DNA from: Escherichia coli
GTDB lineage: Bacteria; Pseudomonadota; Gammaproteobacteria; Enterobacterales; Enterobacteriaceae
Direction: 5' to 3' (one strand)
DNA length: 64,000 bases
NCBI RefSeq assembly: GCF_017348835.2
Contig: NZ_CP071375.1
Each line of letters begins with the position of its first letter. Positions within the stretch are counted from its first letter, which is position 1. Below, piece by piece: positions 56,587 through 57,474 of the stretch. Made by a program: the position numbers and the translations under genes. The notes under the pieces were generated by a model. It ran no database searches and was not told where the DNA came from. It saw nothing but the letters and a program-made list of their open reading frames with translations.

Positions 56587-57474
56587 GTGGTACGGCGTTT
56601 AACTTCTCCGCGGCTCGAATTTGAAGCTGCGGCAATTTATGAATATCCCGAACATTTACGTTCATTCCTTAATGACTTACCCACCCGACCAGGGGTGTAT
56701 CTGTTTCATGGCGAAAGTGACACCATGCCGCTCTATATCGGCAAAAGCGTTAATATCCGCAGTCGGGTGCTTTCTCATTTACGCACCCCGGATGAAGCCG
56801 CCATGCTACGGCAATCCCGGCGAATTAGCTGGATCTGCACCGCAGGCGAAATCGGCGCTCTGCTCCTTGAAGCGCGATTAATCAAAGAACAACAGCCGCT
56901 GTTTAATAAACGGTTGCGCCGCAATCGCCAGCTCTGTGCCCTGCAATTAAATGAAAAGCGCGTCGATGTGGTGTATGCCAAAGAGGTGGATTTTTCACAA
57001 GCCCCCAACCTGTTTGGCCTGTTTGCCAATAGGCGCGCAGCTTTGCAAGCATTGCAGAGCATCGCTGATGAACAAAAACTTTGTTATGGCCTGTTGGGAC
57101 TGGAACCGTTAAGTCGCGGTCGTGCATGTTTTCGTTCAGCGCTAAAACGTTGCGCCGGAGCATGCTGCGGTAAAGAGAGCCATGAGGAACATGCGCTACG
57201 CTTGCGCCAGTCTCTGGAGCGTTTGCGGGTTGTGTGTTGGCCTTGGCAAGGTGCGGTGGCACTGAAAGAACAGCACCCGGAAATGACTCAATATCATATT
57301 ATCCAAAACTGGCTGTGGCTGGGGGCGGTTAATTCGCTGGAAGAAGCGACAACGTTAATTCGGACACCCGCCGGGTTTGATCACGACGGTTATAAAATTC
57401 TTTGTAAGCCGCTGCTTTCCGGTAACTATGAAATTACTGAACTTGATCCGGCGAATGACCAGCGAGCCAGTTGA
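56587..57474 (+). CDS. cho: UvrC-homolog excinuclease Cho
   Basis: 295-aa ORF with GIY-YIG motif GVYLFHG..LYIGKS. Confidence 0.9.

Follow-up and report, generated by a model that had tools for sequence, protein, structure and literature searches.

The Convergent cho–ves Overlap of Escherichia coli: A Probable By-Product of Lost Intergenic Space

Introduction

The excludon concept reportedly goes back to Sesto in 2013, and overlapping bidirectional terminators between convergent genes are said to have been described by Ju et al. in 2019 with SEnd-seq. Transcripts of convergent genes frequently run into each other: overlapping 3′ ends, with a mean of 286 nt, were found at 276 of the 370 convergent operon pairs of E. 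coli (75%) (Conway 2014, PMC4161252). A catalogue produced with ExcludonFinder retained pairs found in at least 50% of 58 MG1655 RNA-seq samples and contains 165 convergent excludons, cho–ves among them (NAR 2025, PMC12288877). That paper holds no experiment specific to cho–ves, which appears only in its Table 1.

Coding sequences themselves can also overlap. In E. coli, 75 convergent pairs were counted among 663 overlapping adjacent pairs, and the commonest reported phase for convergent overlaps of more than 4 nt is 2 mod 3 (Rogozin 2002; PMC2478687; PMC4161906). Many of the long convergent overlaps (>60 bp) are artefacts of 3′ extension (Pallejà et al. 2008, PMC2478687).

The overlap between cho and ves is thus not new. 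It has long been present in the annotation of K-12, and the pair stands in the published excludon catalogue.

The cho–ves Junction

The window analyzed here is a stretch of 64,000 nucleotides of E. coli DNA (contig NZ_CP071375.1). The cho gene, encoding the excinuclease Cho (295 aa), occupies positions 56587..57474 on the plus strand, with a GTG start and a TGA stop at 57472-57474. The ves gene, encoding the HutD-family protein Ves (191 aa), occupies 57434..58009 on the minus strand, from an ATG at 58009 to a TAA stop at 57434-57436. The sequence-only reading of this window had described the two as convergent genes with a 3′ overlap of about 41 bp, so that coding sequence is shared on opposite strands. 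Both parts of this description are borne out: the stop codons are unambiguous, and the overlap is exactly 41 bp (57434..57474) in the list of open reading frames and in the RefSeq annotation. With a length of 2 mod 3, it falls in the commonest phase for convergent overlaps, and it lies below the 60-bp class of long overlaps (Pallejà 2008, PMC2478687). Within it, codon position 2 of cho faces position 3 of ves, position 3 faces position 2, and the first positions face each other.

The same arrangement is annotated elsewhere. In K-12 MG1655, cho (b1741, 1823515..1824402, plus strand) and ves (b1742, 1824362..1824937, minus strand) also overlap by 41 bp, and an identical overlap is annotated in strain PE164, which is 99.9% identical over the locus. 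A 101-nt query centered on the overlap found the junction in 5404 of 5426 complete E. coli genomes, with at least 99% identity in 4009 of them, and all sampled matches carried annotations for both genes. The most divergent E. coli sampled (96.5% identity) likewise has an overlap of 41 bp. An artefactual 3′ extension is ruled out, with identical stops in K-12, divergent E. coli, the cryptic Escherichia clades and Citrobacter. The frame of ves is open for a further 63 nt upstream of its annotated ATG, as far as a TTG at 58072 (58009-58072, minus strand). The RefSeq annotations of PE164 and K-12 place the start at the ATG (58009), and the choice does not affect the 3′ end.

Both genes are genuine and conserved, each matching an equivalog family and having orthologues across species. 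Cho matches the NCBIfam equivalog NF007833 (E = 1e-174), whose model covers residues 1-287. Its GIY-YIG part resembles the N-terminal domain of UvrC; a Pfam search of Cho returned nothing at E ≤ 0.01. Ves matches the equivalog NF008488 (E = 5e-129) over all 191 residues. Residues 8-175 correspond to the Pfam family HutD, and the protein is related to the HutD structures 5fcc and 1yll.

An unusual form of the locus is found in E. coli HCP4S3_I4 (NZ_CM149872.1, L083 1-2800), in which cho is truncated to its last 300 nt and annotated as a partial endonuclease pseudogene. Phage genes, Mu-type com and mom among them, lie ahead of the remnant, whereas ves and the 41-bp junction are intact. Evidently, a Mu-like prophage inserted into cho in this strain.

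In PMC6590174, cho (ydjQ) figures among the LexA-regulated genes and has a known SOS box. In the window, a candidate LexA-box-like sequence with one mismatch to the pattern (CTGTTATACTGGATAG) lies at 56548..56563 on the plus strand, 24 nt upstream of the cho start. Such matches occur at chance frequency throughout the window, so that the position of this one is the only argument for it. Ves bears the RefSeq name “environmental stress-induced protein”, and its gene was reportedly found by Yamada et al. in 2002 to be induced at low temperature. SOS repair and Ves are not known to have any physiological logic in common.

Evolution of the Junction

The history of the junction was followed through 80 species-level Cho-encoding loci of the Enterobacteriaceae, in each of which both stop codons were located. 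An orthologue of cho is present in all 80 species and one of ves in 61, directly abutting cho in 58 and about 1.8 kb away in the other 3. Among the 58 abutting pairs, the junction ranges from a gap of 48 nt to an overlap of 45 nt and occurs in all three antisense phases. The genes overlap in 53 of these species, while 5 have a spacer of 3-48 nt. The 41-bp overlap is shared by 15 species and is specific to the Escherichia–Citrobacter clade. A 23-bp overlap is found in 16 species (the Enterobacter group), and a 4-bp overlap, with the two stop codons interlocked as TTAA, in 5 species (Kosakonia). The remaining states are overlaps of 45 bp (2 species), 32 bp (5), 15 bp (3), 10 bp (1) and 7 bp (6). 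Relative to the 23-bp state, the 41-bp state lacks the ves stop after H185 and so has six more ves codons (18 nt); an alignment of the two junctions also shows a 9-nt difference in length.

Where a spacer exists, it may hold a G+C-rich palindrome. One was seen in all three species inspected, out of the four with a spacer of 28-48 nt. In Enterobacter sp. ENT03, it reads GAACCGGCA..TGCCGGTTC (L045, about 3876-3905) and in Pseudescherichia vulneris CGCCTGCCGT..ACGGCAGGCG (L050, about 3876-3923). Both of these palindromes lack flanking T-tracts and were passed over by the terminator scan.

A full-length spy gene lies directly downstream of cho, with no intervening ves, in 13 further loci. These include Salmonella arizonae and diarizonae (subspecies of Salmonella enterica), C. 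sedlakii, K. pneumoniae and Raoultella (L007, L010, L011, L067, L069). In S. arizonae (L007, 3880-3975), the cho stop is immediately followed by the reverse complement of the spy terminator. On several occasions, including within Citrobacter, ves has been lost or was never gained, and the cho–ves arrangement is evolutionarily labile. Salmonella, Klebsiella and others have no ves beside cho, and cho is therefore not dependent on the arrangement.

Two records in this set carry doubtful labels. “Chryseobacterium sp. 18061” (L047, CACSKA010000006.1) has an enterobacterial cho–ves locus with 74% Cho identity and a layout nearly identical to that of “Citrobacter sp. 18056” (L076), and the Cho of a “Citrobacter sp.” MAG contig (L003, DXKH01000113.1) is 98% identical to that of E. 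coli. Both are probably mislabelled or mis-binned.

The C-Terminal Tails

The conserved cores of the two proteins end only 10 nt apart, at L286 of Cho (57444) and H185 of Ves (57455), and tblastn alignments to relatives stop at residues 286-290 and 185, respectively. What lies beyond is a variable Cho tail of nine residues, D287-S295, with its stop (57445..57474, plus strand), which runs antisense across the conserved Ves C-terminus (..INWLAGH), and a Ves tail of six residues, S186-Q191, with its stop (57434..57454, minus strand), which runs antisense across the conserved end of Cho (..EITEL). The Cho tail differs in sequence from genus to genus and makes E. coli Cho 5-9 residues longer than the protein of many relatives. 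Without ves as a neighbor of cho, as in Klebsiella and Trabulsiella, the Cho frame closes at L286 (..YEIIEL) or a few codons from it. Ves has 185 residues and ends in ..WLPGH* in most genera, among them Enterobacter, Kosakonia and Phytobacter; the six extra residues, SPDxVQ, are found only in Escherichia and Citrobacter.

Codon-position diversity was compared among 16 sequences from Escherichia and Citrobacter, the 41-bp clade. Where only cho is encoded, it shows the normal pattern, from a minimum of 0.104 at position 2 to a maximum of 0.509 at position 3. In 57455-57474, where the Cho tail crosses the Ves core, diversity peaks (0.365) at position 3 of ves, which is position 2 of cho, and is at its minimum (0.08) at position 2 of ves, which is position 3 of cho. 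Substitutions in the Cho tail thus follow the codon periodicity of ves and not that of cho. Synonymous ves changes between Escherichia clades turn the Cho tail from ANDQR into ENGLQ or VNSLP; the change to ENGLQ is made by CTC->CTT, GCT->GCA, GGT->GGC and TCG->TCT in ves. The residues of the Cho tail consequently vary among close relatives while Ves is constant. Since diversity follows the ves periodicity and synonymous ves changes rewrite the tail, the Cho tail is under no purifying selection of its own, and the overlap as a whole does not show purifying selection in both frames. The least variable stretch (0.098) comprises the 11 nt that encode both the Ves tail and the Cho core, as the constraint on Cho itself explains. 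The Cho core codons on the opposite strand (EITEL) likewise account for the modest conservation of the Ves tail (SPDxVQ).

A structure model agrees with this picture for Cho: AlphaFold, run with a shallow alignment, gave a mediocre model with a pLDDT of 69 and residues 290-295 below 50. The corresponding model of Ves (pLDDT 44, also from a shallow alignment) was uninformative and was left out of the argument.

The length of the overlap needs no special cause. For an antisense frame that enters the 3′ end of a gene in the cho–ves phase, the median distance to the first stop in 45 long ORFs of the window is 10 codons (mean 17), and the run at cho–ves is about 13.7 codons. With convergent cores 10 nt apart, some overlap is almost inevitable, and its length of 41 bp is a chance outcome once the genes abut.

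Termination at the Junction

The junction holds no promoter-like site, and a terminator scan of both strands of 57300-57800 gave nothing apart from a weak match on the minus strand, inside ves (57829-57813). Nor does the junction hold a bidirectional intrinsic terminator, that is, a G+C-rich hairpin flanked by an A-tract and a U-tract. A search of published Term-seq data for 3′ ends in K-12 1824000-1824599 returned none, both genes being weakly expressed in those conditions (Adams 2021, PMC7815308). The minus strand at the junction folds no better than shuffled sequence (z = -0.35).

The plus strand folds well (z = -2.5) in the region of an 11-bp hairpin, ACCTTGCGGTTGTAAAAGCCGCAGGGT, that lies inside ves at 57494..57520, 20 nt after the cho stop. 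This hairpin was considered as a terminator for cho and rejected. It has no U-tract, it is kept in Escherichia and not in Citrobacter, it was not called by the terminator scan, and plus-strand RNA of a duplex at 57576-57596 is found beyond it.

An Rfam scan of 56300-58400 found no RNA family at the junction. Its sole hit above threshold was the sRNA family ES036 (CssrF) in the nadE–cho spacer (56437-56479, plus strand; 42.9 bits against a gathering threshold of 37.6), with a weak naRNA4/CssrE match beside it (56397-56433, minus strand). We take both families to be REP-derived and the 56437-56479 match to be probably a REP element.

The spy intrinsic terminator, an exact sequence match, lies at 58122..58182 on the minus strand, and the strong spy 3′ end at K-12 position 1825060, which is 58132 in the window, lies 123 nt upstream of the ves ORF (Adams 2021, PMC7815308). 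Within cho, the same study mapped a Rho-dependent 3′ end 24 nt into the gene (K-12 1823539; 56611 in the window, plus strand) and a bicyclomycin-sensitive region of Rho read-through about 270 nt into it (K-12 1823784; 56856 in the window). These findings suggest premature termination as a limit on cho mRNA when SOS is not induced.

Because the stop codon of each gene lies at the far edge of the overlap, full-length mRNAs of the two genes are necessarily complementary over at least 41 nt. For the same reason, the outcome that the sequence-only reading had named as evidence against an interaction, transcripts that end before the overlap on both strands, is unattainable for full-length mRNAs. In the RNAs that read through, the C/G ratio is 1.3-1.7 from about 50 to 390 nt past the ves stop and 1.3-1.9 from about 50 to 290 nt past the cho stop. 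Because both are thus C-rich and G-poor for several hundred nucleotides, we infer that they most likely end by diffuse, Rho-dependent termination of untranslated antisense RNA.

Antisense RNA and dsRNA

Published measurements show that transcription does cross the junction. In total RNA of wild-type cells, cho has 7.9 RPM of sense and 19.2 RPM of antisense RNA, and in two rnc mutants the sense/antisense values are 6.4/22.0 and 5.7/34.6 RPM (Huang et al. 2020, PMC7373196). Antisense RNA over cho is thus 2.4-6 times sense and about 10 times the antisense of neighboring genes, which is around 2 RPM. In the wild type, ves has 157 RPM of sense and 4.7 RPM of antisense RNA (PMC7373196). Since its sense RNA exceeds that of spy (37 RPM; PMC7373196), ves very likely has a promoter of its own. 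The plus-strand density over ves (4.7 RPM/576 nt) is similar to that over cho (7.9 RPM/888 nt), which suggests that cho transcripts are not stopped at the junction.

The two RNAs also pair. Duplexes of 21-22 bp with 2-nt overhangs, cut by RNase III and captured by p19, are listed within both genes (Huang 2020, PMC7373196, Table S3). One lies in cho at 57247..57267, 167-187 nt beyond the ves stop (old coordinates 1822198-1822219). It was present in exponential and stationary samples and was mapped to the window with 2 SNPs. Two others, both exact matches, lie in ves, at 57576..57596, 102-122 nt beyond the cho stop (1822527-1822548), and at 57863..57884 in the 5′ part of the gene (1822814-1822836). 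In the part of Table S3 covered here, no duplex falls inside the 41 bp. In the two deepest samples, p19 captured 66-75 RPM of cho dsRNA and 106-117 RPM of ves dsRNA, which places both near the top 13.5% of genes (PMC7373196). As judged from published tables rather than raw reads, therefore, transcripts of both strands overlap at the junction, pair with each other and are processed by RNase III.

The sequence-only reading had seen in the overlap some scope for transcriptional interference or antisense regulation. Scope for an antisense interaction does exist and has independent documentation in the antisense RNA, the RNase III duplexes and the excludon listing. Regulation through the overlap has not fared as well: cho sense RNA is not raised in the rnc mutants, the tails drift, and cho is independent of the arrangement.

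Origin of the Overlap

The overlap is very probably a passive by-product of two convergent genes that lost the spacer between them. Loss of the spacer would have brought the conserved cores of Cho and Ves to within 10 nt of each other, and each frame now runs into the opposite gene up to the first stop, giving unconstrained tails of nine residues in Cho and six in Ves. With no room for a terminator between the genes, polymerase on either strand must transcribe into the opposite gene. The two mRNAs are thus complementary at their 3′ ends over much more than 41 nt, and these ends pair and undergo low-level cutting by RNase III; termination is most likely Rho-dependent on untranslated, C-rich antisense RNA and/or diffuse. 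Two observations count against so passive an origin. The 41-bp state has become fixed in E. coli and persists in Citrobacter, which may point to a constraint on the junction, and an excess of antisense over sense RNA in cho would also be expected of a functional excludon.

Two alternatives concern the coding sequence. That one of the stops is wrong, and the genes do not truly overlap, might be suggested by the many artefacts among convergent overlaps longer than 60 bp (PMC2478687) and by the extra length of E. coli Cho relative to its orthologues. There is next to no chance of this, as the same unambiguous ends recur from K-12 to the cryptic clades and Citrobacter, and the junction is conserved at 99% identity or better in thousands of complete genomes; an annotation or sequencing error is already refuted by the sequence. 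It is also highly improbable that the overlap is a selected dual-coding segment, with two functional C-terminal tails and both frames maintained. The persistence of the 41-bp arrangement and of the SPDxVQ motif across Escherichia and Citrobacter would fit such a segment, as would the extension of the NCBIfam Ves model over all 191 residues. Against it, the Cho tail varies freely, and most at codon position 2; its predicted confidence is low, and the Cho family model reaches no further than residue 287. Genera without ves have a Cho that ends at L286 or close to it, Ves ends at H185 in most genera, and the Cho core codons on the opposite strand explain what conservation the Ves tail has. To judge from these comparisons, the 41-bp overlap does not appear to be a specially evolved dual-coding element.

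The other alternatives are regulatory. The pair could be a functional convergent excludon, in which transcription of ves, constitutive or stress-induced, holds basal cho down while SOS-induced cho lowers ves, through polymerase collision and/or decay of dsRNA, so that the two are expressed in a mutually exclusive manner. The large antisense excess over cho, the RNase III duplexes and abundant p19 dsRNA in both genes, the similar plus-strand density across them and the place of the pair in the MG1655 excludome (PMC12288877) all agree with this. Such an excludon is nevertheless unlikely. Membership carries little functional weight when 75% of convergent operons overlap (PMC4161252), ves is missing beside cho in several genera, and the junction drifts. 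Moreover, the flat level of cho sense RNA in rnc-14 and rnc-38 (7.9 RPM falling to 6.4 and 5.7) argues against strong dsRNA-mediated control, although it does not address polymerase collision. A more specific proposal, that the junction acts as a LexA-independent brake on Cho, with read-through from the more active ves promoter lowering basal cho mRNA by head-on collision and antisense pairing and strongly SOS-induced cho silencing ves, is left standing by the rnc result, because effects of collision would not appear in rnc mutants. If true, it would link the DNA-damage and envelope or cold-stress programs, but it must be rated as quite improbable. In general, a regulatory role for the junction is possible, if doubtful, and has no specific support; we infer that the by-product has acquired no selected regulatory function.

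The overlap is thus ordinary and matters little beyond housekeeping. One practical consequence is that a clean deletion of either cho or ves truncates the C-terminus of the other and removes part of its 3′ transcript. As a worked example, cho–ves illustrates how a convergent overlap grows by loss of stop codons, with 4, 23 and 41 bp in different genera. Each tail is dictated by the conserved end of the partner, which argues against a functional reading of such overlaps by default.

Comparison with Known Systems

Comparable to the locus are the cho–spy junctions of species that lack ves, such as S. arizonae and K. pneumoniae. They share the synteny nadE-cho ... spy-astE, and cho is likewise convergent with the next gene. 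Unlike in E. coli, the cho stop is followed at once by the spy terminator hairpin, within a spacer of about 75-120 nt, the coding sequences do not overlap, and Cho ends near residue 286-293.

Overlapping bidirectional terminators (Wang et al., bioRxiv 10.1101/2022.10.23.513370) also involve convergent pairs with polymerases meeting head-on, and the collision-driven termination proposed for them could apply here. However, those sites give sharp 3′ ends at an intergenic stem-loop and work best at high expression, whereas cho–ves has no intergenic element, no mapped 3′ end and low expression.

A further comparison is with convergent excludons (PMC4161252, PMC12288877). In these, too, there is no effective terminator, the transcripts invade the neighboring gene and dsRNA is cut by RNase III, and cho–ves is listed among them. 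Since transcripts overlap at so many convergent pairs, that of cho–ves is typical rather than special. The defining property of excludons, reciprocal repression, is for cho–ves a prediction. The mean intergenic distance in E. coli excludons is 95 nt (PMC12288877), whereas that of cho–ves is negative.

The locus belongs with the convergent overlapping CDS pairs (Rogozin 2002; Pallejà 2008, PMC2478687; Huvet & Stumpf 2014, PMC4161906), in which two real genes, one on each strand, have coding bases in common at their 3′ ends as a result of stop codons that moved or were lost. Nothing essential sets cho–ves apart from them. To this known pair, the present analysis adds a clade-by-clade history of the junction, from 4 to 41 bp, in which each tail is shaped by the constraint on its partner.
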